A program made the position numbers and the translations under genes. From Lachnospiraceae bacterium (GTDB lineage Bacteria; Bacillota; Clostridia; Lachnospirales; Lachnospiraceae): a DNA stretch of 64,000 nucleotides. The notes under the pieces were generated by a model that saw only the letters and a program-made list of their open reading frames with translations, did not search any database and had not been told where the DNA came from. The stretch lies in contig JAGBOC010000011.1 of assembly GCA_017634065.1 (NCBI GenBank), positions 60,412 to 124,411 of the forward strand, written 5' to 3'. Below, piece after piece: positions 1-39,264 of the stretch (the stretch's first letter is position 1; every line of letters starts with the position of its first letter).

Positions 1-2310
1 GCTCTTAAGATGCATGTACATCCTTCTATATCAACAGATGAAAATATAAAAAACTTTGAAAGACAGCTTAAGCAAATATCTGCAATTTATGATTGGGATA
101 TGGAACTAAAAACTACAGATCCAGATTATTATAGATGGACACAGTGGATATTTGTAAAACTTTTTGAAAAAGGTCTTGCATATGAAAAAGAGTTTCCAAT
201 AAATTGGTGTCCAAGTTGTAAGACAGGACTTTCAAATGAAGATGTCGTAGATGGGTGCTGTGAAAGATGTGGAACACCTGTTACTAAAAAGAACTTAAGA
301 CAGTGGATGCTTAAGATTACAGATTATGCAGAGAGATTATTAAATGATCTTGACAAACTTGATTGGCCAGAGAAAGTAAAAAAAATGCAGACGGAGTGGA
401 TTGGCAAATCATATGGCGCAGAAGTTGATTTTGAAATCGCAGATGAAGTTGCGAGTAAAACCGTAGGGGCGAGCAAAGCCGTAGGGGCGAGCAAAACCGT
501 AGGGGCGAGCACTGCGAGCCCTAACATCGTAGAGGCGAACAAAACTGTAGTAGCGAGTGAATCAGTAGGGGCGAGCACTGCGAGCCCTAGTAAAAATAAA
601 ATTACTGTCTACACCACTCGCCCTGACACTTTGTATGGTGCTACATTTATGGTACTTGCACCAGAACATGACCTTGCGATGAAACTTGCGACAGATGATA
701 AAAGAGCAGAAGTTGAAAATTATATAAAGACTGCATCGATGAAAACTAATGTAGACAGGATGCAAGTTTCAGATAAAGATAAAACTGGTGTATGGACTGG
801 AAGATATGCTATAAATCCATTAAATGGTAAAAAGATTCCTATATGGATTTCTGATTATGTATTAAATGATTATGGAACAGGTGCCATAATGTGTGTCCCA
901 GCTCACGACACAAGAGACTTTGCATTTGCAAAAAAGTTTAATCTTGATATTGTACCAGTTATCGCTCCAAAAGATGATATACATAAGTTTGATAATGGTA
1001 TGGATGAAGCATTTGTATCAACTGATGGTATAGTTATTAACTCAGGCGAATGGGATGGAAGAGTATCAAGTGAATTAAAGAAAAATGCGCCTGATGAATT
1101 AGAAAAGAAAGGCATAGGAAAGAAAACTGTAAATTATAAAATAAGAGATTGGGTTTTCTCAAGACAGAGATATTGGGGAGAGCCTATACCTATAGTTCAT
1201 TGCCCTAAATGTGGAAATGTCGCAGTGCCAGTAGAAGAACTTCCGCTAAAACTTCCAGATGTAAAATCTTATGAACCATCGGGAACAGGGGAGTCTCCAC
1301 TTGTAAATATCACTGATTGGGTAAATTGCAAATGTCCAAAGTGTGGTGGCGATGCAAAAAGAGAAACAAATACTATGCCACAGTGGGCAGGTTCATCTTG
1401 GTATTTCCTTCGGTATATAGATGTACATAATGATAAGGCTCTTGTCGACAAAGAAAAGGCTGACAAATATCTTCCAGTAGATATGTATATTGGTGGAGTT
1501 GAACATGCTGTTCTTCATCTTTTGTATTCAAGATTTTGGACAAAGTTTTTATATGATATAGGTGCTATAGGTTTTGATGAGCCATTTCATAAATTATTCA
1601 ATCAAGGAATGATACTTGGACCTAAAGGTGTCAAGATGAGTAAGTCGCTTGGCAATGTAGTTAATCCTGATGAGATGGTTGATAATTATGGATGTGATAC
1701 ACTTCGTATGTATGAACTCTTTATAGGACCTCCAGATATGGATGCAGCATGGGATGATAGAGGCATAGAAGGAGTATATAAATATCTTAATAGACTTTAC
1801 AATTTAGTTGAAAAAAATGTAAATGAAAATAGAGAAGCAACTAAAGAATGTCTATACATAAGACATAATCTTATAAAAGCTGTGACTGATAGGCTTGAGA
1901 AGTTTTCGCTTAATACAGTCATCTCTGGTTTTATGGAGTATACGAACTCACTTATAGAGCTTGATAGAAAAGAAGGCTATATTGACAAAGAGACATTAAA
2001 AACTATCGCTGTCTTATTATCGCCATTTGCACCACATGTAGCTGAAGAGTTTTATCATATGTTAGGTGGAAATGGCACTGTATTTGAAGCAGGTTGGCCA
2101 AAGTTTGATGAGAACCTCGCAAAAGCTGATACAGTGAAACTTCCTATACAGGTAAATGGCAAGACAAGAGGTTTCGTAGAAGTAGATGCAGGAGCTGATG
2201 AAAAAGAAGTTATTAATAAAGCAAAAGAAACCATAAAAGAAAAACTTACCGGTGACATAGTTAAAGAAATCTATGTAAAAGGAAAAATTATTAACTTTGT
2301 CGTGAAATAG
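1..2310 (+). CDS. leuS: Leucyl-tRNA synthetase, 5' end outside window; carries an in-frame repeat-derived insertion
   Basis: Frame 1 is open from base 1. Class I LeuRS blocks present: 'YYRWTQWIFVKLFEKGLAY', 'TTRPDTLYGATFMVLAPEH', 'VKMSKSLGN' (KMSKS). The usual N-terminal ~120 aa are missing. Confidence 0.96.
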   Translation, partial: ALKMHVHPSISTDENIKNFERQLKQISAIYDWDMELKTTDPDYYRWTQWIFVKLFEKGLAYEKEFPINWCPSCKTGLSNEDVVDGCCERCGTPVTKKNLRQWMLKITDYAERLLNDLDKLDWPEKVKKMQTEWIGKSYGAEVDFEIADEVASKTVGASKAVGASKTVGASTASPNIVEANKTVVASESVGASTASPSKNKITVYTTRPDTLYGATFMVLAPEHDLAMKLATDDKRAEVENYIKTASMKTNVDRMQVSDKDKTGVWTGRYAINPLNGKKIPIWISDYVLNDYGTGAIMCVPAHDTRDFAFAKKFNLDIVPVIAPKDDIHKFDNGMDEAFVSTDGIVINSGEWDGRVSSELKKNAPDELEKKGIGKKTVNYKIRDWVFSRQRYWGEPIPIVHCPKCGNVAVPVEELPLKLPDVKSYEPSGTGESPLVNITDWVNCKCPKCGGDAKRETNTMPQWAGSSWYFLRYIDVHNDKALVDKEKADKYLPVDMYIGGVEHAVLHLLYSRFWTKFLYDIGAIGFDEPFHKLFNQGMILGPKGVKMSKSLGNVVNPDEMVDNYGCDTLRMYELFIGPPDMDAAWDDRGIEGVYKYLNRLYNLVEKNVNENREATKECLYIRHNLIKAVTDRLEKFSLNTVISGFMEYTNSLIELDRKEGYIDKETLKTIAVLLSPFAPHVAEEFYHMLGGNGTVFEAGWPKFDENLAKADTVKLPIQVNGKTRGFVEVDAGADEKEVINKAKETIKEKLTGDIVKEIYVKGKIINFVVK
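451..589 (+). repeat. In-frame array of GTAG-type GC-rich repeat units inside leuS
   Basis: GTAG units start at 463, 481, 499, 529, 547 and 565 (spacings 18, 18, 30, 18, 18 nt, all multiples of 3). Full copies 'gtaggggcgagcactgcgagccc' at 499 and 565. Translated as 'VGASKAVGASKTVGASTASP...VGASTASP'. Confidence 0.9.
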
Positions 2311-4220: not shown

Positions 4221-4250
4221 GTAGGGGTGAGCATTGCGAACCCGAAAGGA
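4221..4250 (+). repeat. Single GTAG-type element ending in CCCGAAAGGA just upstream of the tpiA start
   Basis: 'gtaggggtgagcattgcgaacccgaaagga' followed 6 nt later by ATG 4257. No other SD is visible. Confidence 0.85.
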
Positions 4251-4256
4251 AAGAAT

Positions 4257-5000
4257 ATGAGAAAAAAAATTGTAGCAGGAAATTGGAAGATGAATATGAC
4301 TCCAACAGAGACAAAGGAGTTAATAGCAAAACTTAAAGACAAATGTAATACTGATGAGGTTGATGTATTATTTGTAGTGCCATCAATTGATGTGACAACA
4401 GCCTATGAGTGCTTAAAAGGAACAAAAATAAAACTTGGTACTCAAAACTTTTACTTTGAGGAAAAAGGCGCATACACTGGTGAGATTTCTGCAAAGATGA
4501 TTATCGATGCAGGAGCAGAGTATGTAATTATCGGTCACAGTGAGAGAAGAGGCATTTTCAAAGAAGATGATGAGATGATAAATAAGAAACTTATAGCTTC
4601 TCATAAGTTTGGATTAAAGCCAATACTTTGCTGTGGTGAGAGTCTTGAACTTCGTGAAAAGGGAACTTATAAAGCATTTATCGAAGGCCAGATAAAGTCA
4701 GCATTTAATGGTATTGATAAAAATCAAGCAGTAAATACAGTTATCGCTTATGAGCCTATCTGGGCAATCGGGACAGGAAAGACAGCTACATCTGATGAGG
4801 CTGAAGAGGTTTGCAAGTTTATAAGAGATGTTATAAAAGCTCTCTATGATGAAAGTGTTGCAAATGCAATTAGAATTCAATATGGTGGTTCAGTAAATGC
4901 TGGAAATGCAAAAGAGATTTTTTCTAAAGAAGATATAGACGGCGGTCTTGTAGGTGGAGCAAGTTTGAAAGAAGACTTTATAAATATAGTTCATTATTAA
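4257..5000 (+). CDS. tpiA: Triosephosphate isomerase
   Basis: 'AGNWKMN', 'IGHSERR', 'AYEPIWAIGTGKTAT'. Start moved to the internal ATG (MRKKIVAGNWKMN) behind the AAAGGA. Confidence 0.95.
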   Translation: MRKKIVAGNWKMNMTPTETKELIAKLKDKCNTDEVDVLFVVPSIDVTTAYECLKGTKIKLGTQNFYFEEKGAYTGEISAKMIIDAGAEYVIIGHSERRGIFKEDDEMINKKLIASHKFGLKPILCCGESLELREKGTYKAFIEGQIKSAFNGIDKNQAVNTVIAYEPIWAIGTGKTATSDEAEEVCKFIRDVIKALYDESVANAIRIQYGGSVNAGNAKEIFSKEDIDGGLVGGASLKEDFINIVHY

Positions 5001-5018: not shown

Positions 5019-6635
5019 GTGCCAAAGAAGAATAAAAATGAAATAGAAATATCAAATGCCATGGATGAAAATGTGTTAAATGATAACACTTCTATATTAG
5101 ATTTGGATAATGATGAAACTAGTGCTAGTGAAGAAAAAAGTGTAAAGAAAAATACAAGTAAGAGGGTTAGTCAAAAAAGTAATTCAGTTAAAAAAACTAA
5201 GCTTACGAAATCCAAGGCAGTAAAGGCTAAAAGTACTGCAAAGACAAAAAGTAAAGTTTCTAAAAATACTAAAAAGAATAGCAGTAAACAAATTCGCAAG
5301 AAGAATGATGATATTTCAACATATAGATCAAGTAGCAAGAAAATAGAAGATGAACTTCTTAAAGTTACAAATATTAAGTCAATTGAGCAGATAAAAAAGC
5401 CAAGAAGGATTGCTCTGATGATTGCTTTTTATGCTGTCGTAGTCATAGGTATTTTAACTTTCATTCTTATAAGATTTAGCAAACCTAAAAAAACTAATTT
5501 GCTTCTTGAAGAGTCAATAAATTATGAGTTTCTGACAGAAGATACTACAAGTAAGAGAATAGTAGAAGAAAGTTCATCTGATAAGATGGATGAAGAGATT
5601 TTAGAAACTATAGATTATAGAGAAAGTTCAAGTGAGATAGAGACAAAGGAAGCAACAGAGAAAACGACAGAAAAAGTGACACAAAAAGCAACGGAAAAAG
5701 TGACAGAGAAGGCAACAGAGAAAGTAACGGAGAAAAAGACAGAAAGAGCTACAGAGAAAAAGATAGAAAAAACAACAGAGCGTAAGACAGAAAGCACGAC
5801 AGAGTCAGCTGACATAAGTAAGAGACTTATGGAACTTACTACAAAGTCAGCAGACTCATATAAGTTAGAGACAGTTGAGAGAGAGACGGAACCAACTATG
5901 AGAGCCTGGCCAGAGAGAAGAACTATCGCAGAAATATTACCAAGATATAAAGATGTGTTATACTCATATCCAACATTTTATCAGATGTCTCTCTCTGAAA
6001 TAGGAGTTATAAATACTGCTCTTACTGAAAATTATGGCATTGCAAAAAATAAACTGTGGGGTGAAGAGATTTCATTTGCAAATAAAGGCTCAAATGGTCT
6101 CGTCTATTTAAACTATACTTATCTTCAGCAATATATTGAAAATTATACAAGTTCCGTAAGACAAGACTATGACAAGCTTAAATTGGCACCATATTATAAT
6201 TATATTATGAATGACAAGTTTCGCTATGACTATAAGACTTATACTACTAATCTTCAATTGAAACTTGACTTTAAGAATGCAAAAAATCAAGGAATGTATT
6301 ATGAGATACCAGCTATTATTTATGAACCGGCTGGAACAAATGTCTCATCAAATGGTATAAATAGGATAGATGTGAGAGTGCTAAAAAAGGCTAAAGTAGG
6401 CTATACCGAGAGTTTTTCACTCACATCACTTCTAGAAGTTCTTGATATAGAATGTCATACTAAACATAATCCATTTTTTGACATAGAGGATGTGATAGGT
6501 ATGAATCCTAAAGCAGTTTCGGACATGATAGGCAGTGGTTTTGATGTCAGATCCTTGATAGAAGATGAGATATTTAACTATGTCTTATTTGACAAAAAAG
6601 GTTATATAACAGCGCTTTATATGCTTAAATCTTAA
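5019..6635 (+). CDS. Hypothetical membrane protein with Lys/Ser-rich N-terminus and TEK-repeat region
   Basis: GTG start. Basic low-complexity N-terminus, one TM ('IALMIAFYAVVVIGILTFILI'), tandem 'ATEKVTEK' repeats (about 5640-5800). Confidence 0.6.
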   Translation: MPKKNKNEIEISNAMDENVLNDNTSILDLDNDETSASEEKSVKKNTSKRVSQKSNSVKKTKLTKSKAVKAKSTAKTKSKVSKNTKKNSSKQIRKKNDDISTYRSSSKKIEDELLKVTNIKSIEQIKKPRRIALMIAFYAVVVIGILTFILIRFSKPKKTNLLLEESINYEFLTEDTTSKRIVEESSSDKMDEEILETIDYRESSSEIETKEATEKTTEKVTQKATEKVTEKATEKVTEKKTERATEKKIEKTTERKTESTTESADISKRLMELTTKSADSYKLETVERETEPTMRAWPERRTIAEILPRYKDVLYSYPTFYQMSLSEIGVINTALTENYGIAKNKLWGEEISFANKGSNGLVYLNYTYLQQYIENYTSSVRQDYDKLKLAPYYNYIMNDKFRYDYKTYTTNLQLKLDFKNAKNQGMYYEIPAIIYEPAGTNVSSNGINRIDVRVLKKAKVGYTESFSLTSLLEVLDIECHTKHNPFFDIEDVIGMNPKAVSDMIGSGFDVRSLIEDEIFNYVLFDKKGYITALYMLKS

Positions 6636-6717
6636 TAGTTTTTTAATATTTTAGAGAGCCAATTTGTTGATTTTTTGTTAATATTATTCTATACTAATAG
6701 ATAGTAAGAGGTGTGAT

Positions 6718-8574
6718 ATGATTAGAAAAGTTTATAATTTTATTATTGCGACTTTAGTGGCTATCATGATGGTGAGCCAGGTAAGTTTTGTATTTGCTGC
6801 AAATGAAAGAGAACTTACTGATGATGAGAAGGCAGCATTCATAGTCCGCGATGAGTGGACTTCTTGGGTTCGTGATTTTACCGCATCTCTTTCTGAACTT
6901 GATAAAAATGCGACATCTAAAATCTATGACAACATGGATTTCTATGATATGCAGTATAGATTTACTGAAAAGTATAAAAAAGTTCCTGAGTATCTTGATG
7001 AGGATGGAAAGCCAACTCAAAAACTTAAGGATATGATAAAGACAAAGAGAAAGGAACTTGCAGGAGCAACTATAAGAGATTATTTGTGCTTCACTTCAAA
7101 TGCAGCAGGTTCTAAAATCTCGTATGCAAAAACTGGGTCAGTGACAACTGATGGTCTTGGTATCTCAACTGATGGAGTTTCATTTGTTGCTTGGGATGGC
7201 TCTGAAAAGACTATAGGTTCAGGTGAAACATTATACATTGTAAATAAAAGAAACTCATTAAGTACTGGTAGTGCTAATTTTCTACACTTTAATATCACTG
7301 GTAATGTATCAGTATCTGGTGACATATCTTCTCTTATAAACTTTAGTGATATATCATCTTTTTCATTTTTTAATTTATTTTCTGGATGCACAGGGCTTAC
7401 TAATGCTGAAGATTTAGTGTTGTCAAAGACAGCTGTTTCTTCGTACAATGGTATGTTTTATAACTGCACTAATTTGACTAGACCACCTGTGTTGTCAGCA
7501 ACTAGTCTATCAGCAAGTTGCTACGATAGTATGTTTGCTGGTTGTACAAATTTAACTTCTGCACCAAAACTTCCTGCAACGACACTTGCTAACGCTTGCT
7601 ATAGAAATATGTTTTCTGCTTGTTCAAGTTTGACAACTGCACCAGATTTACCAGCAACAACATTAGCAAATTCTTGTTATCAAGGGATGTTTAATGGTTG
7701 CTCATCACTTAATTCTATATCACTTGAATGGGAAGGAAACTTCTCTGGTACAGGAGTACCTACAGATGCATTTACAAATTGGGTAAATGGTGTAGCTAAT
7801 AGTGGAACATTCTATTATAGTGGTAGTGCTGATTCTACAGCAGATTCATCATATGGTGCGAGTGCTATGCCTAAAAATAGCACTAATAAATGGACTATAG
7901 GCAGAAATGATTACCTCAGATTCATATCAAGAAAAAATGGGTCACAGGTTGGATACTCATTGCATAACTTAACACGAAATAATATATACTATTCAAAAGA
8001 TAGAGTAACTTGGACACAATGGAATGGTAATTATGTAACTATCGACAATGGTGAAACATTGTATGTACATAATCGTGATAACCAGTTAGCGACAAGTACT
8101 ACTCAGTGTTTAATTTTTAATATGCCAAATTCAGGAGAAATAGAGGTTGCGGGAAATATTATGTCACTTGCCAATTTTAATACTACAGTACCATCAAGTT
8201 GTTTTTATGGAGTATTTGCTGGGGATTCTGGAATTGGAGATGGTTGTGATGCACTTGTAGATGCATCATCTTTAAAATTACCAAGTGCCATTGCTGCTGA
8301 ATGTTATCGAGAAATGTTTAATGGTTGCCGAAGATTGGTATATGGGCCAACATTACCAGCAACAACATTGGCATCAAATTGTTATATGCGCATGTTTCAG
8401 AACTGTACTTCGTTAATTAGTATTAAGCTTGGCTATACTGGATCTTTTGATAACGCATATTTTGCAGGATGGGTTAATAATATTAATACAGTCGGTACAT
8501 TATACTACAATGGCACAGGAACAGTGCGTGGTGGCAATGGTATCCCAACCAACTGGTCAGTAGTAACATACTAG
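6718..8574 (+). CDS. Secreted BspA-like leucine-rich-repeat surface protein, internally duplicated
   Basis: Signal peptide 'LVAIMMVSQVSFVFA'. Repeated 'F.GC..LT..P.LPATTLA..CY..MF..C.SL' units in two half-molecule copies. Confidence 0.7.
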   Translation: MIRKVYNFIIATLVAIMMVSQVSFVFAANERELTDDEKAAFIVRDEWTSWVRDFTASLSELDKNATSKIYDNMDFYDMQYRFTEKYKKVPEYLDEDGKPTQKLKDMIKTKRKELAGATIRDYLCFTSNAAGSKISYAKTGSVTTDGLGISTDGVSFVAWDGSEKTIGSGETLYIVNKRNSLSTGSANFLHFNITGNVSVSGDISSLINFSDISSFSFFNLFSGCTGLTNAEDLVLSKTAVSSYNGMFYNCTNLTRPPVLSATSLSASCYDSMFAGCTNLTSAPKLPATTLANACYRNMFSACSSLTTAPDLPATTLANSCYQGMFNGCSSLNSISLEWEGNFSGTGVPTDAFTNWVNGVANSGTFYYSGSADSTADSSYGASAMPKNSTNKWTIGRNDYLRFISRKNGSQVGYSLHNLTRNNIYYSKDRVTWTQWNGNYVTIDNGETLYVHNRDNQLATSTTQCLIFNMPNSGEIEVAGNIMSLANFNTTVPSSCFYGVFAGDSGIGDGCDALVDASSLKLPSAIAAECYREMFNGCRRLVYGPTLPATTLASNCYMRMFQNCTSLISIKLGYTGSFDNAYFAGWVNNINTVGTLYYNGTGTVRGGNGIPTNWSVVTY

Positions 8575-8675
8575 TAAAAAAAATTATATATATATACAAA
8601 ATAATACTAATTCAAAAAAAATGCAGTGATTAAAGTTTCAAGTCTTTAGCATAAATTATTAAAAAAGGGGTAAAA

Positions 8676-8966
8676 ATGAAATCTTTAACAAAGAAAGTTT
8701 TAATAATAATTTTATCAGTCTTGATTATGGGGGCTCTCGCGGCTATCCCTGGTTTTGCAGAGACACAGGAAGAATTAAAACAAATATTTGTGACAAGAGA
8801 TGAAGTGAACCTTTGGATTAATGGCAATGGCTCACAGACAGGTATAAGTGAAGTTCTTGCTAACCTTGAAGTGAATATGCAACAACAAGTTCAGTCAAAA
8901 GTTAAGATAGAAATGTCAAAAAGAGGCATCAAAGATAAAGCAGAGACTACAACGACAGCACCATAA
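8676..8966 (+). CDS. Small secreted hypothetical protein
   Basis: RBS 'aaaggggt' upstream, signal peptide 'LIIILSVLIMGALAAIPGFA', followed by a terminator. Confidence 0.5.
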   Translation: MKSLTKKVLIIILSVLIMGALAAIPGFAETQEELKQIFVTRDEVNLWINGNGSQTGISEVLANLEVNMQQQVQSKVKIEMSKRGIKDKAETTTTAP

Positions 8967-8985
8967 TTTAAAAATATGGTTTATA

Positions 8986-9012
8986 AAGGGTGGCATATGT
9001 CACCCTTTTTTA
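8986..9012 (+). terminator. Rho-independent terminator
   Basis: 'aagggtg-gcatatgt-caccctt' followed by a T-run. Confidence 0.7.
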
Positions 9013-9091
9013 TTTTCATTTTTATGAATAGTCAATATAATTGAAAAGCAAGATAAAATATGCTATTATTATTAGCAGAGGTGAATTAGCA

Positions 9092-10174
9092 ATGCCAAAG
9101 ATTAGTAAAAAAAATAAATTGTCAATAATTGAAAGTGATAGTCAGGGGCTTGATGAGAGAAAAAGAGACATTTTAATAACTATTATAAAGTTATATTTAG
9201 ATACTGGAGAGCCAGTAGGCTCAAGAACTATAAGTAAACTTCCAGATATGGGCTTAAGCCCTGCAACTATAAGAAATGAGATGAGTGATCTTGAAGACCT
9301 TGGCTTTTTAATTAAACCACATACGTCAGCAGGTCGTATTCCTTCTGATAAGGGTTATCGTTTATATGTAAATAACCTAATGAAGGAAAAGGAAGTCGAG
9401 ATAAAAAATCTAAAGACAGAAATGACGGCAAGAGTTGACAAACTTGAAGATATGATGAAGACATTAGTTAAGACACTTGCTACAAATACAAATTATGCTG
9501 CCATGATAGCGGGACCTTCGGTGGATAATAACAAAATAAAGTATGTCCAGCTTTCAAATCTTGAAGATAAGAAGGTACTTGCGGTAGTCGTTGCTGAAGG
9601 AAATGTAGTTAAGACAAGAATAGTTGATTTTGACAAAATTATAGATGCAAAGGTTATACTTGATTTAAACCAAAATCTAAACAACATACTATCAGGGGTA
9701 AAAGTTTCAGACCTTGTATCAGATAAAATAAAATCTGAAATTAATAAATTAAAAAATAATAAAAATGAAATAAGTATCCTTATAAATGGCATAAAAGAAT
9801 CATTTGAAGAAAAAGATACTTCTGACAATATCTGGACATATGGTTCAAATAACTTTTTCCGCTATAAGGAATTTGAAGAGTCTGGAAATGTCAAAGATTT
9901 GGTTGAGACATTTGAGCAGAAGAAGGACTTAAAGAAACTTGTTGATAAGGTCAATGAGGAAAACACAGAGACAGGATTAAGGGTCTATATAGGAGAAGAA
10001 TCGTCAGTAAATGCTATGAAAGACTGCTCCGTAGTCACAGCTAATTGTGATTTTGGAAATGGTATGAGAGGGACGATAGGTGTAGTAGGACCGAAGAGAA
10101 TGGATTATGAGAAGGTGCTTAAAACTATAAAGAACACTATGATAAATATCAATAAAGAGTTAACTAATAAATAA
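9092..10174 (+). CDS. hrcA: Heat-inducible transcription repressor HrcA
   Basis: 'LDERKRDIL..II..Y...GEPVGSRTISK' winged-helix N-terminus, length about 360 aa. Start set at ATG 9092 (MPKISKK). Confidence 0.85.
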   Translation: MPKISKKNKLSIIESDSQGLDERKRDILITIIKLYLDTGEPVGSRTISKLPDMGLSPATIRNEMSDLEDLGFLIKPHTSAGRIPSDKGYRLYVNNLMKEKEVEIKNLKTEMTARVDKLEDMMKTLVKTLATNTNYAAMIAGPSVDNNKIKYVQLSNLEDKKVLAVVVAEGNVVKTRIVDFDKIIDAKVILDLNQNLNNILSGVKVSDLVSDKIKSEINKLKNNKNEISILINGIKESFEEKDTSDNIWTYGSNNFFRYKEFEESGNVKDLVETFEQKKDLKKLVDKVNEENTETGLRVYIGEESSVNAMKDCSVVTANCDFGNGMRGTIGVVGPKRMDYEKVLKTIKNTMININKELTNK

Positions 10175-10204
10175 TATGTTTTAATTAATAGGAGACTAAT
10201 AGTA

Positions 10205-10813
10205 ATGATAAAAAATATAATATTTGATATGGGTAATGTGCTTATAGATTTTAATCCTATGCAGTATGTAGGTGAGCTTCATCTCGCGAATAAGGAAGAA
10301 GAAGAAAAAGTATTTAAGGCAGCCTATCTCAATTTTAAATCTATATATATGGATTACGGAAGAATTACTGAAGAAGAGTTTGTAAATCATGTAGTAGAAG
10401 GTATAGGGGAAGAATATCGAGATAAGATAAAAGAGTTGATAATCAACTGGCATAAGTACCTAACACCGATAAAAGGTATGGAGGAGATAGTTAAAGAACT
10501 TAAAGACAAAGGCTATAAGATATATCTTTTGTCAAATGCAGGATTTTCTCAACACGACTATTGGGATAGAATCCCAGCAAGTAAATATTTTGATGGAAAA
10601 GTAGTATCCTGCGATGTTGGCGAAGTTAAACCATTTAGAGAAATATATGAGGCACTTTATAAGAAGTTTAACATAAAGCCAGAAGAGAGTTTCTTCATCG
10701 ATGATTTAATTATCAATGTTTTTGGTGCAAATAGAACTGGCATGGAAGGCTATGTATTTACAGGAAGTGCCGAAGACTTGCGAAAAGAGTTAGTTAGAAG
10801 GGGAATATTATAA
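10205..10813 (+). CDS. HAD-superfamily hydrolase (subfamily IA-like)
   Basis: Motif I 'IIFDMGNVLIDF', motif II 'LLSNA', C-terminal 'FIDD'. Confidence 0.8.
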   Translation: MIKNIIFDMGNVLIDFNPMQYVGELHLANKEEEEKVFKAAYLNFKSIYMDYGRITEEEFVNHVVEGIGEEYRDKIKELIINWHKYLTPIKGMEEIVKELKDKGYKIYLLSNAGFSQHDYWDRIPASKYFDGKVVSCDVGEVKPFREIYEALYKKFNIKPEESFFIDDLIINVFGANRTGMEGYVFTGSAEDLRKELVRRGIL

Positions 10814-10879
10814 TAAGTTGTAAAGTTAAAACTTTGTAATTATTAAAAGCAAAAAATCATTCTATTTTGTATCATAATA

Positions 10880-11009
10880 AGTTGAAAAGTAGCCAGAATT
10901 TGTGCAAAAAATAGCAAAATATCATCCAGATTTATGTCAAAATTAGTTAAAACATCGTCCGAATTTGTGTCAAAATTAGTTGAAAAGTCGTCCGAATTTG
11001 TGTATAATC
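10880..11009 (+). repeat. Four tandem ~32-33-nt promoter-like direct repeats
   Basis: Units begin at 10880, 10913, 10945 and 10978. Consensus is about AGTTGAAAAGTCGTCCGAATTTGTGTCAAAATT. Confidence 0.85.
10980..11008 (+). promoter_or_regulatory. Consensus sigma-A-type promoter within the last repeat unit
   Basis: TTGAAA (10980-10985), 17-nt spacer, TATAAT (11003-11008), 8 nt before the ATPase ATG region. Confidence 0.6.
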
Positions 11010-11015
11010 AGGAGT

Positions 11016-12314
11016 ATGAAAAGAGAAATATTAGAAAAACTAGCTAATTGGAAGAATAGTAAAAATAGAAAGCCCTTGATTCTGAATGGTGCGAGGCAAG
11101 TTGGAAAGACCTATATACTTAAAGAGTTTGGGGCAAAATACTTTGATAATGTTTGCTATATAGACTTTAGTAGTAATGAGAGTTACAAAAATATTTTTGA
11201 AAAAGATTTTAATATTGAGCGAATAATTACTGAATTTAATGCAATTACTTCAACAAAAATAATGAGAGGCAAAACTCTTATTATTTTGGATGAAATACAA
11301 GAGGCTCCAAGAGCAATTACTTCGCTAAAATATTTTTGCGAAAATGAAAATGAATATGTAGTTGCATGTGCAGGTTCATTACTTGGAGTTGCAATACATA
11401 AAAATACATCATTTCCAGTTGGAAAAGTAAACTTAATGACAATGTTTCCTCTGACATTTATTGAGTTTTTAGAAGCAATGGGCAAAGAAGGATTAGCAAA
11501 ATTGCTTCAAGATGGCAATTACGAGAGTATAAATGATTTATCAGAAGATTATAATGCACTTCTAAAACAATATATAATAGTTGGAGGAATGCCAGAAGTT
11601 GTAAAGGAATTTGTAGAGAACAAAGATTTTACAGAAGTAAGAAATATACAAAAAGAAATTCTTAAAATGTATGATAATGATTTTAGTAAACACATAATTA
11701 ATCAAAATGAGTTATTAAAAACAAGGCAGGTGTTTACTACAATTCCAAGAGAATTAGCAAAAGAAAATAAAAAGTTTGTTTTGAGAGATATGGAGAAAGG
11801 TGCGAGACTCTCAAAATATGAAGTTGCTATTCAATGGCTTGTTGATGCTGGTGTGGTTTACAAAATACACAATGTTGATAAAATTGGAATACCACTATCT
11901 GCTTATAAAAAAATGGAAAACTTCAAAATCTATTTAGTCGATGTAGGATTATTAGGTGCAATGAGCAATCTTGATTATGCAGTGATTATTGAAGAAAATA
12001 GATTATTTGTTGAATTTAAAGGTGCACTAGCAGAACAATATATTTGTCAGGAATTAATGTATAGGTATCAAGATGAATTGTTTTTTTATTCAGATAGCAA
12101 ATCTGAAATGGAAGTAGATTTTATGATTCAGTCAAGAAATGAGCCTATCCCAATAGAAGTTAAATCAGGCAGTGTAGTTCAAGCAAAAAGTTTAAAACAA
12201 TATATAAAGAAGTATAAACCAAGTTATGCAGTTAGATTTAGTTTACTTAAGAACAAATATGATGAAACTATAAAAAATTATTCACTTTGGTCGGTGCCGA
12301 ATCAAATATTATAA
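11016..12314 (+). CDS. AAA+ ATPase with C-terminal DUF4143 / PD-(D/E)xK-like module
   Basis: Walker A 'GARQVGKTY', Walker B 'LIILDEIQ', C-terminal 'EVDFMI....PIPIEVKSG'. Start at ATG 11016 behind 'ggag'. Confidence 0.8.
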   Translation: MKREILEKLANWKNSKNRKPLILNGARQVGKTYILKEFGAKYFDNVCYIDFSSNESYKNIFEKDFNIERIITEFNAITSTKIMRGKTLIILDEIQEAPRAITSLKYFCENENEYVVACAGSLLGVAIHKNTSFPVGKVNLMTMFPLTFIEFLEAMGKEGLAKLLQDGNYESINDLSEDYNALLKQYIIVGGMPEVVKEFVENKDFTEVRNIQKEILKMYDNDFSKHIINQNELLKTRQVFTTIPRELAKENKKFVLRDMEKGARLSKYEVAIQWLVDAGVVYKIHNVDKIGIPLSAYKKMENFKIYLVDVGLLGAMSNLDYAVIIEENRLFVEFKGALAEQYICQELMYRYQDELFFYSDSKSEMEVDFMIQSRNEPIPIEVKSGSVVQAKSLKQYIKKYKPSYAVRFSLLKNKYDETIKNYSLWSVPNQIL

Positions 12315-12353
12315 ATATAAATTGTTAGATAAAACATTAAAGGGGAAATAATT

Positions 12354-13131
12354 ATGGATATGTTAGCAAAATATAAAGTAGTAGCAAAAAGATACGAGGA
12401 TATGCTTATGAATACTGAAGGCGCTTTAGGCGTAATGCACCTGGGGGGGGGTGGCAAGAGAACGCGCTGATGAACATTCTGACATTGACATTGCTGTATT
12501 TTCTTATGACAAACTTGATATTAAAGAAGGAGAGCAATTATCTGAAGAAGGATATGATGTTGAAATTTTTAATATTTGCATAAATAAAGGATTTGATGAC
12601 TGGGATCCTATCAAAAAAGAAGCATATGCTGAAGGAATTATTGCAAGAGATACAAATGGTATTGTTAAAGACTTTATGGATAAAGCTCTTTTTTATGACG
12701 AAGAGTTTAGATGTAGGTATTTAGCAAAAAATATATTTGATATTGCTTGGCACGGTTGGATTTATACACCATTTAGGAATCAAAATGTAAAAGGATATAA
12801 TTGGATTTTGCCAAATAACTTATGGCATCAAAGAGGAGAAATAAGTAATGATTACTATTTAACGAATTGGTGTATCAATAGTTTTATAGAATTGTTATTT
12901 GTAGTAAATAGAAAGTGGACTCCTGATTTTAAATGGAGATGGATTCGCTCTTGTCACTTAGAAAAATTACCAAGTAATTATAAAGAAAATATGAGTTATT
13001 TATTGTTTGAACCTTGGAATGAAGATACTTGGCTACAAAAGGGAAAGGTTTTCCAAAGGATGATTGATGAAGTAATACCGATGGTAATTGATGACATGCC
13101 TGAAGACTGGTATAACTTATTGGAGCACTAA
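12354..13131 (+). pseudogene. Pol-beta-type nucleotidyltransferase-domain gene interrupted by a +1 frameshift at a G9 tract (or phase-OFF state)
   Basis: ATG 12354 with RBS 'aagggg'. The frame stops at TGA 12468. The downstream frame (ORF 12451..13131) reads 'ARERADEHSDIDIAVF'. Removing one G from G9 (12443-12451) fuses them to '...GALGVMHLGGVARERADEHSDIDIAVF'. Confidence 0.75.
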
Positions 13132-13149
13132 TAGTTGAATGGAGTTTAT

Positions 13150-16100
13150 ATGGAAACAAATAAAGTATTCATTTCTCATCAACATAATAATGATGATATA
13201 GCAAATAAAGTTTTGTCAGCATTAGAGAATAGTGGTTTAGAGTGTTTTGTTGATCATATGCATATTCCTGACGGTAAGAATTGGAGTGACAGAATTGAAA
13301 AGGAATTAACCGAATGCAAATATTTTATTTTGATAAACTCTGAATATACTGTAGGGTCAAATGGTTGTTATGTTGAATTAGATAGAGCAAAACAAGCAAA
13401 AAAACAAATTATTATATTAAAACTTGGCGACTTCAAGGAAGATTATAAGTGGGACGTTTTGCTTACTGCAGTTCAGGTGACACAAATTACAGAAGATAGA
13501 GTATATGATATTGTCAAGAATAAAGTTGTACCTAGTTTCATAGGGTCACAGCAAAAAAATGAAGTAAATAAAATGACCATAGATGAGTTTAACAATGTAG
13601 AGATTGATAAACTGAAAAACGATTCTTCTGAAACATATTTGAGAACATCTTTTAATGATTTTGTTGATTTAGCAATTAAGGGAAATGAGAGATTATCAAT
13701 TATTAAATATAAACAAAATTGTGAGTATGAAGATAATCTATACACAAAATTAATAAATATAAAGAATGATGAAGTAAAATTCATCTATTGCAACTCAATA
13801 GCATCTGTTGATTTATCAATTAATTTGATTGCTGAACAAAAACAGGAAGAGGTTTATTATTTATTTATAAAGAGCATTAATGAAATTGATGGACTAAATA
13901 AGATACATAGCTTAATTCAGAATCATAAAAATATAAACTTTATAATTGGAATTAATTTAGAATCATGGATAGATTTTAATAACGAATTTAATGATGCCAG
14001 GTGTCTTGTTTTTGATAAAATGTCTAATAAAGAAACGATAGAATATTTAAAACAGTTAGAAAAGGAAGAAGGGCTAAATATAGGTGGCAATTTACAAACA
14101 ATATTTTTGTTACCAGCGCTTCATGATTTTAGGACTCCAAAGTTACTAAAGATTATTATTAATTACATAAAGAAAAATTATTCGTCTTACAATGATTCGG
14201 ATTTTAATTTGACAGATATTTTTGATTTTTATGATAAATATTTAGAAACCAATGTTAAAGCAAATGAAGCATTTGAAGAATTGATTAGTATTGCTATAAA
14301 AAAGAAATTCAATGTTTTTACTCTTACAGAATTTGCAGATAATAAAAATGTATTATTCGAGAATGAATTAGTGACAAAAAAGGGGATTAATTATAAAATA
14401 GGAAATGAAGAGTATTTTCTACATAGAGTTGCTATGCATATTTTTACAACATATGGTTCTAATTACGAGGAATCATCAGTATTAGCAATAAAGGATTCTA
14501 TTCCTTATTATATATATTTATATTATAGCGAAACTCATGAATTAATACTCGACAAATTTAAATTGGATGAGCAAAATATTAGTAAACTATTACAATTATT
14601 CATTAGTGAGGAAGAAGCATTTACTAGTATAGTTTTATCAAGAAAATATGACACAGAAATTGTAAAACTGCTAAATGAAATTAATGAAAAAGGATTGTAT
14701 AATATTTCTGAAAGAATAATTAGTATTTTTGAAAAAGAAGGTATAGACCCAAGTGAAGAACTTGATTATTTATCTGCTAAAATTGAGATGCATTATAATA
14801 TGACAGATGAATTACTTGAAACTGATGCTGAATTTGGTAATGTATTGGCTGAAAAGGCGTATATTTGTTATCAAACAGATAATTTTACTAAAGCAGGTGA
14901 ATTATTTGATAAAGCAATTGACAAAATGCTTGATGCAAATCAAACTAATTATAAACTTATATTTAATTATATAGAGTATCTATTTGATTTTGGTGACTAT
15001 AACAAAATTGAAGAATTACTTAATTATGTAGATAATGAAGACATTAAGTCAAGTGATGACTTGCTAATTAAGTATTATTATAGTCAGGCTGAATTAGATG
15101 GATATCGTTTGGAGATAGATTCATGCCTTTATAATTTAGAGAAATGCATATCTTTGTGCGAAAAGAATGTCAATATTGGTAAAATGCAGATTTATTATGG
15201 TGAAAAAGGATATTACTTAATGCTTAAAGGTAAATATGACGAATCTAAAAGATATAGTAGAATTAATTTGGAAATAGCAAAATCTTTAGGTAATTTTAAT
15301 GGAATGGTGGTGGCATCTATTAATCTTGCAATGTGCGAGTTAGCTTTACAAAACTTTGAACAAATGTATAAGTTAGTTTCATATGCCTTAGTATATGCAA
15401 AAAATGTTAGAAATTACTGGAGATATAGCGAGAGTTTTATGTATCTGTTACTATTGATAAAGGACAAGGATAAATTAGAAAACATTGATGAAATAATACC
15501 AAATGTAGATTCTGATATATTTAGAACATATATATATTTGTTATATTCATATTATTACTATATAAAAAAAGATATAGCACTTGCTAAAGAAAAAATTAAT
15601 ATTGCTATAAATTATTCAAATCAGATTGAAAATGTACAATTAAAAGAGATGGTAAAGGCATGGTCTAATTACATAAGCACTGAAAAAGTTGGAAATATTG
15701 ACAATGAGTTAAGACAATATATGAATGATGTGATTGAATCATTAAATGCTTTAAGAATTGAAGAAAAAACATTTACTTTGCCACTAGAGTTTTATTTGTA
15801 TAAAGAACTAAATAGTGAACGACTAAAATATAGAATTATGAAAATTTCTGATATACCAGATATATTTGAATATTCTAGTAATAGTGAATGTACTAAATAT
15901 GTATTATTTGATAAGCACAAATCTTTTAATGATACTGCAAAGTTTGTTGCAAATGTATATGATGAAAATAATACTGGAACATATATGTGTTGGGCAGTAG
16001 AGCATAGAGAAGACAAGAAAGTTATTGGCACAATTGATTTGATATTAAGTGAAAGATATAATGAAATAGAAATAGGATATATATTTAATAAGAATTATTG

Positions 16101-16320
16101 GAGAAAAGGTTACGGAAGAGAGTCAGTAAAGACAATCGTTGACTATTGTAAAAATTGTTTGGGGCTCAAAAGTTTATTAGGTGTTGCTTTTGAAGTAAAT
16201 GAAGGATCAAGAAAATTGTTAGAATCTACAGGTTTTGTTGAATTTGAAAAAATAGAAAATTATCATAATAAAATATTACTTAAATCAAAAAATGGTGTAG
16301 CATACAGGCTTTTATTATAA
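13150..16320 (+). CDS. TIR-domain - helical/TPR scaffold - GNAT acetyltransferase fusion protein (1,056 aa)
   Basis: N-terminus 'KVFISHQH...GLECFVDHMHIPDGKNWSDRIEKEL.ECKYFILINS......GCYVELDRA' (TIR_2-like). C-terminus 'IGYIFNKNYWRKGYGRESVKTIVDYC...EVNEGSRKLLESTGF' (RimJ/RimL-type GNAT). No Walker A seen. Start at ATG 13150 after 'ggag'. Confidence 0.75.
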   Translation: METNKVFISHQHNNDDIANKVLSALENSGLECFVDHMHIPDGKNWSDRIEKELTECKYFILINSEYTVGSNGCYVELDRAKQAKKQIIILKLGDFKEDYKWDVLLTAVQVTQITEDRVYDIVKNKVVPSFIGSQQKNEVNKMTIDEFNNVEIDKLKNDSSETYLRTSFNDFVDLAIKGNERLSIIKYKQNCEYEDNLYTKLINIKNDEVKFIYCNSIASVDLSINLIAEQKQEEVYYLFIKSINEIDGLNKIHSLIQNHKNINFIIGINLESWIDFNNEFNDARCLVFDKMSNKETIEYLKQLEKEEGLNIGGNLQTIFLLPALHDFRTPKLLKIIINYIKKNYSSYNDSDFNLTDIFDFYDKYLETNVKANEAFEELISIAIKKKFNVFTLTEFADNKNVLFENELVTKKGINYKIGNEEYFLHRVAMHIFTTYGSNYEESSVLAIKDSIPYYIYLYYSETHELILDKFKLDEQNISKLLQLFISEEEAFTSIVLSRKYDTEIVKLLNEINEKGLYNISERIISIFEKEGIDPSEELDYLSAKIEMHYNMTDELLETDAEFGNVLAEKAYICYQTDNFTKAGELFDKAIDKMLDANQTNYKLIFNYIEYLFDFGDYNKIEELLNYVDNEDIKSSDDLLIKYYYSQAELDGYRLEIDSCLYNLEKCISLCEKNVNIGKMQIYYGEKGYYLMLKGKYDESKRYSRINLEIAKSLGNFNGMVVASINLAMCELALQNFEQMYKLVSYALVYAKNVRNYWRYSESFMYLLLLIKDKDKLENIDEIIPNVDSDIFRTYIYLLYSYYYYIKKDIALAKEKINIAINYSNQIENVQLKEMVKAWSNYISTEKVGNIDNELRQYMNDVIESLNALRIEEKTFTLPLEFYLYKELNSERLKYRIMKISDIPDIFEYSSNSECTKYVLFDKHKSFNDTAKFVANVYDENNTGTYMCWAVEHREDKKVIGTIDLILSERYNEIEIGYIFNKNYWRKGYGRESVKTIVDYCKNCLGLKSLLGVAFEVNEGSRKLLESTGFVEFEKIENYHNKILLKSKNGVAYRLLL

Positions 16321-16338
16321 TTAAGTTGTATGGTAAAG

Positions 16339-16464
16339 GTTAGAACAACCATTGTAGGGTCGAAGATTAGAACAACCATTGTAAGTGTGAAAATTAGAGC
16401 AACCATTGTAAGTGCGAAAATTAGAGAACCATTGTAGGGGCGAAGGTTTCCGAGCCCGAAAGGA
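16339..16464 (+). repeat. Tandem 27-nt repeat array ending in a GTAG-type element and CCCGAAAGGA
   Basis: Exact 27-nt periods at 16339, 16366 and 16393. Fourth unit (16420-) ends 'gtaggggcgaaggtttccgagcccgaaagga', 4 nt before the xpt ATG. Confidence 0.9.
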
Positions 16465-16468
16465 AAAT

Positions 16469-17044
16469 ATGCAAGAGTTAAAAGAAAAAATCTTAAAAGA
16501 AGGTAAGATTTGTCCAAATGATATAGTGAAAGTTGACTCATTTCTCAATCATCAAGTCGATGTTCACTTTCTAAAAAAAATTGGACAGGAGTTTAAGAAG
16601 AGATTTGAAGGAGCAGAGGTTAGTAAGGTTTTGACTATAGAATCTTCTGGCATAGCTATAGCTTGTTATACAGCGGAGGCATTTGACTGCAGACTTGTAT
16701 TTGCGAAAAAAGGTGTATCGCTTAATCAATCAGAGGATTTTTATGAGTCAAAAGTATTTTCTTATACAAGAAGAGAAGAGTATCCTATAAGAGTTTCAAA
16801 AGAGTTTTTAGGTAAAGATGATAAGGTTTTAGTCATAGATGATTTCCTTGCAAATGGAGCGGCACTTAATGGACTTATAGATATAGTGAAAAAATCAGGT
16901 GCTACCCTTGTCGGATGTGGAACTGTCATAGAAAAAGGATTTCAACCAGGTGGTAAAAGTTTAAGAGAAAAAGGCATAAGAGTTGAGTCACTTGCAATCA
17001 TTGAATCGACAGATGAAGTTAATCAGAAAATTACATTTCGTTAA
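16469..17044 (+). CDS. xpt: Xanthine phosphoribosyltransferase
   Basis: 'VKVDSFLNHQVD', 'TIESSGIA', 'VLVIDDFLANG', 'VIEKGFQPG'. Closely matches my recollection of Bacillus Xpt along its whole length. Confidence 0.93.
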   Translation: MQELKEKILKEGKICPNDIVKVDSFLNHQVDVHFLKKIGQEFKKRFEGAEVSKVLTIESSGIAIACYTAEAFDCRLVFAKKGVSLNQSEDFYESKVFSYTRREEYPIRVSKEFLGKDDKVLVIDDFLANGAALNGLIDIVKKSGATLVGCGTVIEKGFQPGGKSLREKGIRVESLAIIESTDEVNQKITFR

Positions 17045-17113
17045 TTATTAGTAAAAGAGAACTTCATAAACATATTTGTAATGTTTATTACTTATGAGTT
17101 CAAGAGGTGAATC

Positions 17114-18531: not shown

Positions 18532-18621
18532 GGAGATAGGAGGGTAGCTGGTGCGCCCCGCGGTCTTCAACACCGTTGTGAAAGTTAAACTTTCGGCTAG
18601 GTTCGATTCCTAGCGTCTCCG
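18532..18621 (+). tRNA. selC: tRNA-Sec (anticodon UCA)
   Basis: Anticodon stem-loop 'gcggt-CTTCAAC-accgt' with TCA at 18667-offset-free position 18567-18569. Long variable arm 'gaaagt-taa-actttc'. T-arm 'ctagg-ttcgatt-cctag'. Sits directly upstream of selA. No encoded CCA. Acceptor pairing is imperfect, so the ends are +/- 2 nt. Confidence 0.85.
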
Positions 18622-20151: not shown

Positions 20152-20256
20152 GTAGGGGTGAGCACTGCGAACCAGAGTGTAGATGTGAGCATTGCGAGTT
20201 AAATGTAGTGGTGAGCACTTTGAACCAATTGTAGGGGTGAGCACTGCGAACCCGAA
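20152..20256 (+). repeat. Four tandem GTAG-type units (periods 27, 26, 26 nt) filling the selA-selB spacer
   Basis: GTAG at 20152, 20179, 20205 and 20231. The outer units are intact 'gtaggggtgagcactgcgaacc', the inner two degenerate. Confidence 0.9.
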
Positions 20257-38698: not shown

Positions 38699-38784
38699 GT
38701 AGGGGCGAGCACGCGCCCGAGCGTTTTTTCCGAGCGTAGCGAAGGAAGTGCGACAAAGCACCCTTGGGGTGCGAGCCCGAAAGG
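38699..38784 (+). repeat. Composite GTAG-type GC-rich element filling the prdD-prdE spacer, ending CCCGAAAGGA
   Basis: 'gtaggggcgagcacgcgcccgagcg...ggggtgcgagcccgaaagga', then 5 nt, then ATG 38791. Confidence 0.85.
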
Positions 38785-38790
38785 ATAAAT

Positions 38791-39264
38791 ATGGGAGTAG
38801 GTCCAAGTACAAAAGAAACGACATTACATCATTTTAGAGATCCGCTTATAAATCTTATAGCTGAAGATCCTGATATTGATTTTCTTGGAGTTGTGATAGG
38901 TGGCATACCAGATAGAAATGTTGATAAAAAGTTTACAGGAGAAAGAATAGGTGCTTGGCTTGAGGCTATGAGATGTGATGGTGCTATAGTTTCAGAAGAT
39001 TCGTGGGGCAATAGTAATGTAGACCTTGCTGCTGCTATGGAAGCTATAGGCAGAAGAGATATACCACAAGTTGGTATGGTACTTATTGGCACACAAGGAA
39101 TAGTCGATCAAAATGAATATATGGATACTATGGTTGATACAAATCATAGTGAGAGTGGTACCGAGACAAATATTGTTGCAGAAAACTGTATGACTATGGC
39201 GGAAGCACGAAAGTGTGTAGCACTTCTAAAACTCAAAATGAGTAGAAAATACGGACACTTGTGA
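38791..39264 (+). CDS. prdE: PrdE (paralogue of the C-terminal/alpha part of PrdA)
   Basis: 'VGPSTKETTLHHFRDP' vs PrdA 'IGPASKEQSRHYWREP'. 'MRCDGAIVSEDSWGNSNVD' vs 'MDCDGAIVTTEGFGNNHVD'. Confidence 0.85.
   Translation: MGVGPSTKETTLHHFRDPLINLIAEDPDIDFLGVVIGGIPDRNVDKKFTGERIGAWLEAMRCDGAIVSEDSWGNSNVDLAAAMEAIGRRDIPQVGMVLIGTQGIVDQNEYMDTMVDTNHSESGTETNIVAENCMTMAEARKCVALLKLKMSRKYGHL

Follow-up and report, generated by a model that had tools for sequence, protein, structure and literature searches.

Members of a GTAG-class REP family abut the Shine–Dalgarno sequences of xpt and other genes in an uncultured rumen Lachnospiraceae genus

Introduction

In an uncultured rumen Lachnospiraceae bacterium, the gene for xanthine phosphoribosyltransferase (xpt) is preceded by a spacer that carries a tandem array and closes with a GC-rich hairpin, the foot of which touches the Shine–Dalgarno (SD) sequence GAAAGGA. 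The locus lies within the 64,000-nucleotide stretch analysed here (assembly GCA_017634065.1, contig JAGBOC010000011.1, positions 60,412–124,411 of the forward strand; hereafter the window), in which a similar junction also precedes tpiA and prdE. The question that it raises is whether the repeat itself brings the ribosome-binding site (RBS) of these genes, and at xpt has taken the place of a purine riboswitch, as proposed in an earlier note on this DNA, or whether it lies against signals that the genes already possessed.

The repeat is a genus-restricted, GTAG-class repetitive extragenic palindromic (REP) family, with cognate REP-associated tyrosine transposases (RAYTs) in congeneric genomes. 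The explanation that we favour, and hold to be fairly probable, is that this family has spread in the manner of RAYT-served elements and is wedged against SDs belonging to the genes themselves, with no SD donated and no riboswitch displaced.

Genomes and gene starts

The genome under study (G000) is an 87% complete assembly of 1.61 Mb in 33 contigs, with a coding density of 91%. It was compared with 12 congeners, giving a genus set of 13 genomes, and with 28 genomes from outside the genus. Gene starts beyond those of ten profile-checked genes were taken from a crude caller that weighs SD strength.

The xpt leader and the abutment of hairpins to Shine–Dalgarno sequences

The xpt leader is composed of the following features.

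16321..16468, + strand: intergenic spacer of 148 nt between a TIR/GNAT defence-like gene (13150-16320) and xpt
16336..16445, + strand: array with a 27-nt period, 4.1 copies, 83% matches
16434..16457, + strand: terminal complete REP hairpin, a 24-nt variant, GTAG and then GGGC-GA-A-GG-UUU-CC-GA-GCCC
16458..16464, + strand: xpt Shine–Dalgarno sequence GAAAGGA, a 7-nt complement of the 16S rRNA 3' end
16469..17044, + strand: xpt, xanthine phosphoribosyltransferase, start confirmed by profile and by congener N-termini

The first base of the xpt SD directly follows the hairpin foot, which is 11 nt ahead of the ATG, and its last base lies 4 nt before the ATG; the 16S 3' end to which it is complementary was located at the start of contig C4 of G000. 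The encoded protein matches its profile over the full length (residues 1-189 on profile positions 1-187). Each unit of the upstream array consists of a REP 5' head (GTAGGGKCGAA, or the decayed form GTAAGTGYGAAA) and a 17-nt spacer; since this spacer is found at the xpt locus only, the array is best described as a local tandem duplication. The same units occur in another strain, represented in sequencing run X5, with eight substitutions and no insertion or deletion, on a contig that ends within the xpt repeat at 16456; an RNA-library contig of run X18 spans 16846-17100 only, and runs X6 and X9 contributed nothing. A scan of the metagenomes with Xpt found 31 loci with identities no higher than 61%, among which there were no same-species alleles and no empty/filled xpt junction. 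No Rfam family matched the xpt leader at the gathering score, and a search of 16200-16520 at E≤10 gave a chance match only (E=1.1). A promoter and terminator scan of 16150-16500 found no terminator-like site in the spacer and two weak promoter-like matches against 1.0 expected, which is the level of chance.

The window contains the string CCCGAAAGG at three places (4241, 16455 and 38776), always on the + strand, against 0.04 occurrences expected, and none of 100 shuffles reached three. At each site an ATG stands 5-7 nt after the GG, which is equivalent to 4-6 nt after CCCGAAAGGA, and opens tpiA, xpt or prdE. The earlier note had given these distances and starts, and profile matches together with congener N-termini bear it out; no second SD-like sequence is present ahead of the three starts. 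Across G000 all six CCCGAAAGG sites have an ATG 5-7 nt past the GG, and a recognisable element stands before four of the six.

The SD-proximal placement is enriched genome-wide. The gap from hairpin foot to start is 9-16 nt at 7 of the 29 intergenic loci in G000, against 1.9 expected under uniform placement (P ~3e-4), and of the 28 loci that offer 30 nt or more of free space, 6 are abutted against 1.0 expected. The abutted genes are tpiA, xpt, prdE, selB, dapB, the aspartate kinase gene lysC, atpD, and genes for a MATE transporter, a choline-binding-repeat protein and one small open reading frame (ORF). In the genus set, GYGARCCCGAAAGG was found at 25 sites in 8 of the 13 genomes, and at every one of them an ATG stands 5-10 nt past the GG and opens an ORF of 57-498 amino acids. 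The abutment of hairpin to SD is real, and it concerns 31 of the 243 copies in an unbiased set.

Anatomy, distribution and transposases of the repeat

The REP core, GTAGGGGYGAGCAYTGCGARCCC, consists of GTAG and, with no base between, GGGC-GA-GC-(3-nt loop)-GC-GA-GCCC, an imperfect GC-rich palindrome with tandem G.A/A.G positions and a predicted hairpin fold of -8.4 kcal/mol. Among 96 distinct variants, two-sided changes are found at five of the six pairs, with 19 double-change cells against 6.1±2.3 in shuffles (none of 500 shuffles reached 19), and 87.8% of the cells remain paired against 8-49% when partners are slid. The G.A/A.G positions are kept in ~95% of copies, and G1, T2 and A3 of GTAG are each kept in at least 90% of the distinct variants; the first nucleotide after the foot (+1) is rarely C (2%), which leaves GTAG unpaired. 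An asymmetry between G.U-type (51) and A.C-type (33) cells is too weak to tell RNA-level from DNA-level pairing.

The flanks of 268 copies show a bias of their own: pyrimidines occupy the two positions ahead of GTAG (-2 and -1), position -1 being C in 50%, T in 43% and G in 0%, and past the foot a purine stands at +1 in 77% and C in 2%. This bias may reflect how the RAYT prefers to cleave or to choose its target.

At up to five mismatches G000 holds 66 copies, 55 of them intergenic. The family is present in 10 of the 12 congeners, with 0-189 copies per genome, and in none of the 28 genomes outside the genus. The stem of the main subfamily (4 bp, tandem G.A, 2 bp and a 3-nt loop) is shorter than the search descriptor of PMC6006769, which asks for a basal stem of 7-20 fully paired nucleotides with a loop of 2-5, or for two bulge-joined stems, and which is a search rule and not a definition; a sister subfamily, GTAGGGGCGGATATCATCCGCCC, with an 8-bp stem and a 3-nt loop, fits it.

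RAYT-like Y1 transposase genes occur in 10 of the 13 genus genomes (NF047646, 55-80 bits, under the cut-off of 80) and are absent from both element-free genomes. The co-occurrence of RAYT and element (10/11 against 0/2) involves related and incomplete genomes and a mixture of two RAYT types, and is taken as suggestive and not as a test. GTAG hairpins flank the gene in inverted orientation on both sides at 6 of 14 RAYT-like loci, each paralogue having its own subfamily; the main subfamily lies on both sides of a RAYT gene in G003 and G010 and upstream of one in G012. The 146-residue protein of G012 matches Pfam Y1_Tnp above the cut-off, and its best match in the Protein Data Bank is E. coli TnpA-REP (4ER8, E=1.9e-6), with the HUH (PNHLHII) and WQ...R motifs aligned.

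PMC6006769 and PMC5581495 describe REPs as having GTAG or GTGG 0-2 nt 5' of a hairpin, and RAYTs as being flanked by their own REPs. Head, hairpin, copy number and RAYT association all fit that description, and the repeat is assigned to the REP/RAYT systems for this reason. When examined as REP doublets forming hairpins (REPINs), the inverted doublet did not prove to be the repeated unit: arrays are direct, and few inverted pairs occur in the other genomes (loci L192 and L171). One REPIN-like arrangement away from a RAYT gene was seen on contig C15 of G007, where a copy at 32641 (+) is accompanied by copies at 32840 and 32873 (-) inside an ORF of the crude caller. The literature searched contained no description of this family, of Lachnospiraceae REP repeats or of SD-supplying REPs; the supplementary taxon lists of the RAYT groups, which could name the lineage, lay outside this search.

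Two partial, long Y1-transposase-like genes were observed at contig ends of G000 (C31, 19292-19684, and C16, 1-600). They are nearly alike over a 208-residue C-terminal part, the C31 copy is frameshifted beside the HUH motif, and no REPs accompany either copy within the loci read.

A reading of the REP head as a TAG stop combined with an SD mimic, or of the element as inserting after TAG stops, was considered and dropped, the TAG of the head serving as a stop at one copy only (contig C5, 67843).

The Shine–Dalgarno sequence lies outside the repeated unit

According to the earlier note, the 3' tail of the element supplies the SD of tpiA, xpt and prdE. What stands of this claim is the contact between the hairpin foot and the one SD that each of these genes has; a census of the tails does not support the rest. 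In the unbiased set of 243 copies the GAAAGG tail is found at 8 of 31 RBS-adjacent copies, at none of 64 array-internal copies and at none of 148 others, that is, at 0 of 212 copies away from a start. A tail borne by the unit should also appear away from starts, and the repeated unit therefore does not include it.

SD sequences that follow the hairpin are moreover diverse, comprising GAAAGGA, GAAGGAG, GGAAGGA, GGGAGGA, GTAAGGAG, GATTGGAG, GTTATAGGAG and GCAAGGAGG, and with the same hairpin in front, the SD of a single nucleotidyltransferase-like gene is GAAAGGA, GATTGGAG or GGGAGGA depending on the orthologue. GAAAGG lies 4-8 nt ahead of the start of 45 of the 1323 genes of G000, and 41 of these 45 have no recognisable element upstream; tpiA, xpt and prdE have a normal SD spacing and about the median SD strength. 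The element-free tpiA junction of G012 reads caa-TAG-GAAAGGA-taatat-ATG, with the same SD that stands behind the element in G000 and G010, and across the tpiA junctions of 11 species the types of SD are alike with and without the element. The SD thus appears to be the gene's own, with prdE as the exceptional case that is weighed below. The first base or two of an extended SD may coincide with the element boundary.

CCC or CC directly before GAAAGGA, with no recognisable hairpin, was also seen in G000 at C25 3859 and C11 71082, two cases against ~0.2 expected by a rough estimate, and in the tpiA leaders of G011 and G006 (L249, L251). Such hairpin-less sites may be the feet of decayed or excised REPs.

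Predicted folding of the leaders

The earlier note also envisaged a CC-GAAA-GG mini-hairpin of the GNRA type sequestering the SD. In the predicted folds the CCC is taken up by the main stem as its 3' arm and no such mini-hairpin forms; at tpiA, xpt and selB both the minimum free energy (MFE) and the centroid structures leave the SD unpaired. Only in the composite element before prdE does a CCUU/AAGG pairing involve the SD in the MFE structure, which has an ensemble frequency of 0.055; the centroid lacks the pairing, and this lower stem is not kept in other copies of the composite module. The predicted unpaired probability of REP-abutted RBSs has a median of 0.61 against 0.495 for other genes (Mann–Whitney p=0.0036, n=8).

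Orientation of the copies

In the tandem intergenic regions of G000, 48 heads (in 31 regions) are co-oriented with the genes and one is anti-oriented, and no copy was found in the 65 convergent intergenic regions. Inside ORFs as called, 42 heads are sense and three antisense; this in-gene bias is not due to stop codons, none of the three antisense frames being closed by them. By GC skew 92% of the genes of G000 are on the leading strand, and the 11 heads at four lagging-strand loci all follow the gene, none following replication against its own gene. On two contigs of G007 (223 kb), 16 leading-strand and 10 lagging-strand copies are co-oriented with their genes, four oppose both gene and replication, and no leading-strand copy is anti-oriented. 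The copies follow the orientation of the gene and not the direction of replication, a result that rests on GC skew and on ~8 informative loci.

The absence of a purine riboswitch at xpt

The purine riboswitch RF00167 was not detected in the window at the gathering score, in 16200-16520 at E≤10 or anywhere in the G000 genome. It was found in none of the 12 congeners, in 1 of 24 genomes of the same family and in 7 of 41 relatives overall, lying directly upstream of xpt in G030 and G033, which belong to the same order. Five complete congener xpt leaders are short, have SDs of their own (TGGAGGG, TAAAGGAG, GGGAG and AAAGAGGTG) and contain neither riboswitch nor element; in a sixth, that of G006, a diverged hairpin is located ~25 nt upstream of the SD AAAAAGGAG. 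The earlier note was right in describing the spacer as an array without a purine riboswitch; its further suggestion, that the element had replaced one, is not supported. Because the xpt leaders of the congeners also lack the riboswitch, its absence predates the present xpt locus, and no replacement took place here.

The tpiA–xpt gap measures 11.5 kb in G000 and ~2-4 kb in G011, G010 and G006; in these three congeners a HAD-like gene adjoins xpt, and in G000 the defence-like gene lies directly upstream of it. On these grounds the xpt leader is probably a young junction of a gene that was already without the riboswitch. The ~10 kb between tpiA and xpt (window 5019-16320), which include the TIR/GNAT defence-like gene, suggest an inserted island with the xpt leader as its right edge.

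Further REP sites in the window

The other REP sites of the window, with their neighbouring features, are listed below.

451..589, + strand: in-frame array of REP heads and two full REPs inside leuS (10-2310), 18-nt period
4221..4243, + strand: REP copy before tpiA, a U:A compensatory variant
4244..4250, + strand: tpiA Shine–Dalgarno sequence GAAAGGA, native in the element-free junction of congener G012
4257..5000, + strand: tpiA, TpiA residues 2-246 on profile positions 2-246
20152..20253, + strand: REP array before selB, 26-nt period, 3.8 copies, last hairpin 20231-20253
38699..38778, + strand: composite REP filling the prdD–prdE junction, head and 3' arm parted by a ~55-nt inserted module
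38779..38785, + strand: prdE Shine–Dalgarno sequence GAAAGGA, behind the composite REP
38791..39264, + strand: prdE-like gene, homologous to the C-terminal part of PrdA, profile match from residue 3

The tpiA copy starts 4 nt past the stop of a VanW-like gene and ends 13 nt ahead of the tpiA ATG. The insertion in leuS encodes VGAS-type repeats (VGASKx/VGASTASP), around which the match of the protein to the LeuRS profile is split in two. At selB the ATG (20265) is 11 nt after the REP foot and the tail, GAAAAATATAT, contains no SD (duplex energy ~0). Tails of GAAAAA, GAAAGT or GAAAAC before an ATG were noticed at several copies in other genomes; what follows the hairpin at selB and at these copies may be an SD that is weak or has decayed.

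The composite module, a conserved ~55-nt insert between the REP head (GTAGGGGCGAGCA) and the 3' arm (tgcgagccc), recurs at no fewer than 10 places in G000 and, stacked with others, upstream of a multi-copy family of secreted proteins (MRKSTK...). The window also contains a tRNA-Sec (50.1 bits, 18532-18620) just upstream of selA–selB, a proline racemase-like gene and prdD–prdE, and is thus the neighbourhood of a selenoprotein proline reductase.

Discussion

A genus-specific REP family lying against SDs that belong to the genes would account for the xpt leader as follows. A unit of REP head and spacer would have been duplicated locally three to four times, one complete hairpin closing the array. 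The REP would occupy the first position upstream of the SD/anti-SD pairing at which an insertion spares initiation, at xpt as at tpiA, prdE, selB, dapB, lysC, atpD and other genes, and would be transcribed in sense within the mRNA. Because the GC-rich arms are predicted to pair with each other and to leave the A-rich RBS single-stranded, the consequence for translation would be neutral to mildly favourable, with no switch and with a small effect on expression. Spread and insertion would be mediated by the RAYTs; copies would survive only where initiation is unharmed, and in a genome that is 91% coding no bases would be spared between hairpin and SD, so that tolerance and compaction together would explain the exact abutment.

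Several observations weigh against this explanation. At prdE the element-free G012 and G002 read TAGGAGG-4/5 nt-ATG, and the element-bearing G000, G001 and G005, which are closest by TpiA identity, read CCC-GAAAGGA-ta[ga]a[at]-ATG; the SD would here have changed with the insertion or in the same lineage, as would fit a tail brought by the element. Among SDs that immediately follow the hairpin GAAAGG is commoner than in the genome at large (8/31 copies against 45/1323 genes), and +1 is G in 30 of the 31 RBS-adjacent copies. The anchoring of arrays on the side of the SD (gaps of 11-15 nt), in contrast to that of the stop upstream (gaps of 1-222 nt), is not obviously explained by tolerance and compaction alone, and neither is the occurrence of differing REP subfamilies at the one tpiA junction in several species. 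No cognate small RAYT was found in the G000 assembly, which is 87% complete, tblastn returning only a distant paralogue of 22-26% identity.

The prdE junction also speaks for the proposal of the earlier note, in which GAAAGGA is the 3' tail of the element, the SD is donated on insertion and native signals, including a riboswitch leader at xpt, are replaced. This proposal can further draw on the identity of the junction CCCGAAAGGA at four element copies in G000 and 25 sites in eight genus genomes, on other contigs of one metagenome run in which hairpin and GAAAGG are followed by differing ATG-led sequences, and on the precedent of an RBS-carrying repeat, Neisseria REP2, described in PMC3184786. 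It is largely refuted by the tail census, in which neither any internal array unit nor any of the 212 copies away from a start has the tail, and it is further opposed by the heterogeneous tails behind the hairpin, the native GAAAGGA at the element-free tpiA of G012, the 41 of 45 GAAAGG-led genes without a recognisable element and, in the genomes searched, the lack of the riboswitch throughout the genus; we hold it to be improbable. Least probable of all, to the point of being hardly credible, is a switch in which the CC-GAAA-GG mini-hairpin, or the CCUU/AAGG stem of the prdE composite, masks the SD conditionally: the one fold that speaks for it is the low-frequency MFE pairing at prdE, itself missing from the centroid and not conserved in other copies of the module, and elsewhere the CCC is engaged in the main stem, the SD is unpaired at tpiA, xpt and selB, and SD regions behind REPs are more accessible than the genome median.

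More weight, though still well short of an even chance, is given to co-option by the host, in which a sense REP hairpin at the 5' edge of the SD would be selected as an insulator or standby structure for the RBS, as an exonuclease barrier after intercistronic cleavage or, through its tandem G.A, as a protein-binding motif, so that abutment and orientation lock would be adaptive. Orientation tracks transcription even at lagging-strand genes, convergent regions are empty of copies, arrays are anchored at the SD, prediction gives abutted RBSs a higher unpaired probability (0.61 against 0.495), and the G.A/A.G positions are more conserved than the Watson–Crick pairs; the abutted genes are core genes, hairpins recur at the tpiA junction of G000, G005, G010 and G003 (decayed in G002, G006 and G011) and the prdE junction has one in three of five species. 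Yet the tpiA hairpin is missing, with gene and SD intact, from G012 and from G001, which is the closest congener, two genus genomes have no copy at all, 212 of 243 copies are not at an RBS, coding-region copies share the orientation bias where an RBS role is impossible, and different subfamilies at one junction suit turnover as well as conservation. Bolder, and in our view rather doubtful, is the idea of a REP family domesticated at the RNA level, locked in sense and parked to the single nucleotide at the 5' edge of the SD/anti-SD pairing of core genes, where it would keep the RBS open and shield the cistron from exonucleases; alternatively, the same lock might arise if RAYT insertion were coupled to transcription, through the exposed non-template strand, and not to replication as in the IS200/IS605 family.

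Relation to known repeat systems

The nearest likeness of the favoured REP reading is to the GTAG REP/RAYT systems (E. coli REPs and bacterial interspersed mosaic elements, the 4ER8 protein, REPtrons), with which the repeat shares the GTAG directly before an imperfect GC-rich palindrome, tens to ~190 mostly extragenic copies per genome, and small HUH-Y1 proteins alignable to TnpA-REP, whose genes are enclosed by inverted copies of the matching subfamily. Unlike the classical REPs, it is hosted by an uncultured rumen Lachnospiraceae genus, has a short stem (4+2 bp with tandem G.A), occurs as singletons or as direct tandem arrays with head-only units, is co-oriented with transcription and missing between convergent genes, and has many copies wedged against SDs or in frame inside genes. 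As in the REPIN–RAYT systems of Pseudomonas and enterobacteria, a non-autonomous hairpin repeat is served by a RAYT of which there are one or a few copies, a genus contains several REP subfamilies each with a RAYT of its own, and copies persist at the same junctions across species; there, in contrast, the replicating unit is an inverted REP doublet, and here inverted pairs are rare away from RAYT genes. Group 1 RAYTs occur in Clostridia, with ~12 occurrences of the flanking 16-mer for Group 1 overall, according to PMC5581495.

Neisseria REP2 and the inverted repeats of Borrelia likewise stand immediately upstream of many unrelated genes and place hairpins near the 5' end, and it is these repeats that the proposal of the earlier note resembles, but PMC3184786 puts promoter, RBS and ATG inside the REP2 unit, whereas here the SD is on none of the 212 non-start copies and varies between copies.

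Rickettsia palindromic elements (RPEs) are repeats fused in frame into genes. The coding-region copies described here are similarly kept in frame, as in the VGAS repeats of leuS; there is no sequence relation, and RPEs are longer. The purine riboswitch RF00167 leaders of Firmicutes concern the same gene, xpt, and have no match at this locus.

Conclusions

What looked like an RBS-donating, riboswitch-replacing repeat can now be placed as a defined REP/RAYT system of an uncultured lineage of Firmicutes, described REP families being almost all from Proteobacteria in the literature consulted. It has features beyond those of classical REPs, namely co-orientation with genes, direct arrays of head-only units, in-frame copies in essential genes and exact abutment to SDs. 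For annotation, such hairpins are not to be read as regulatory leaders, and the absence of a riboswitch is to be judged against the clade and not against Bacillus.

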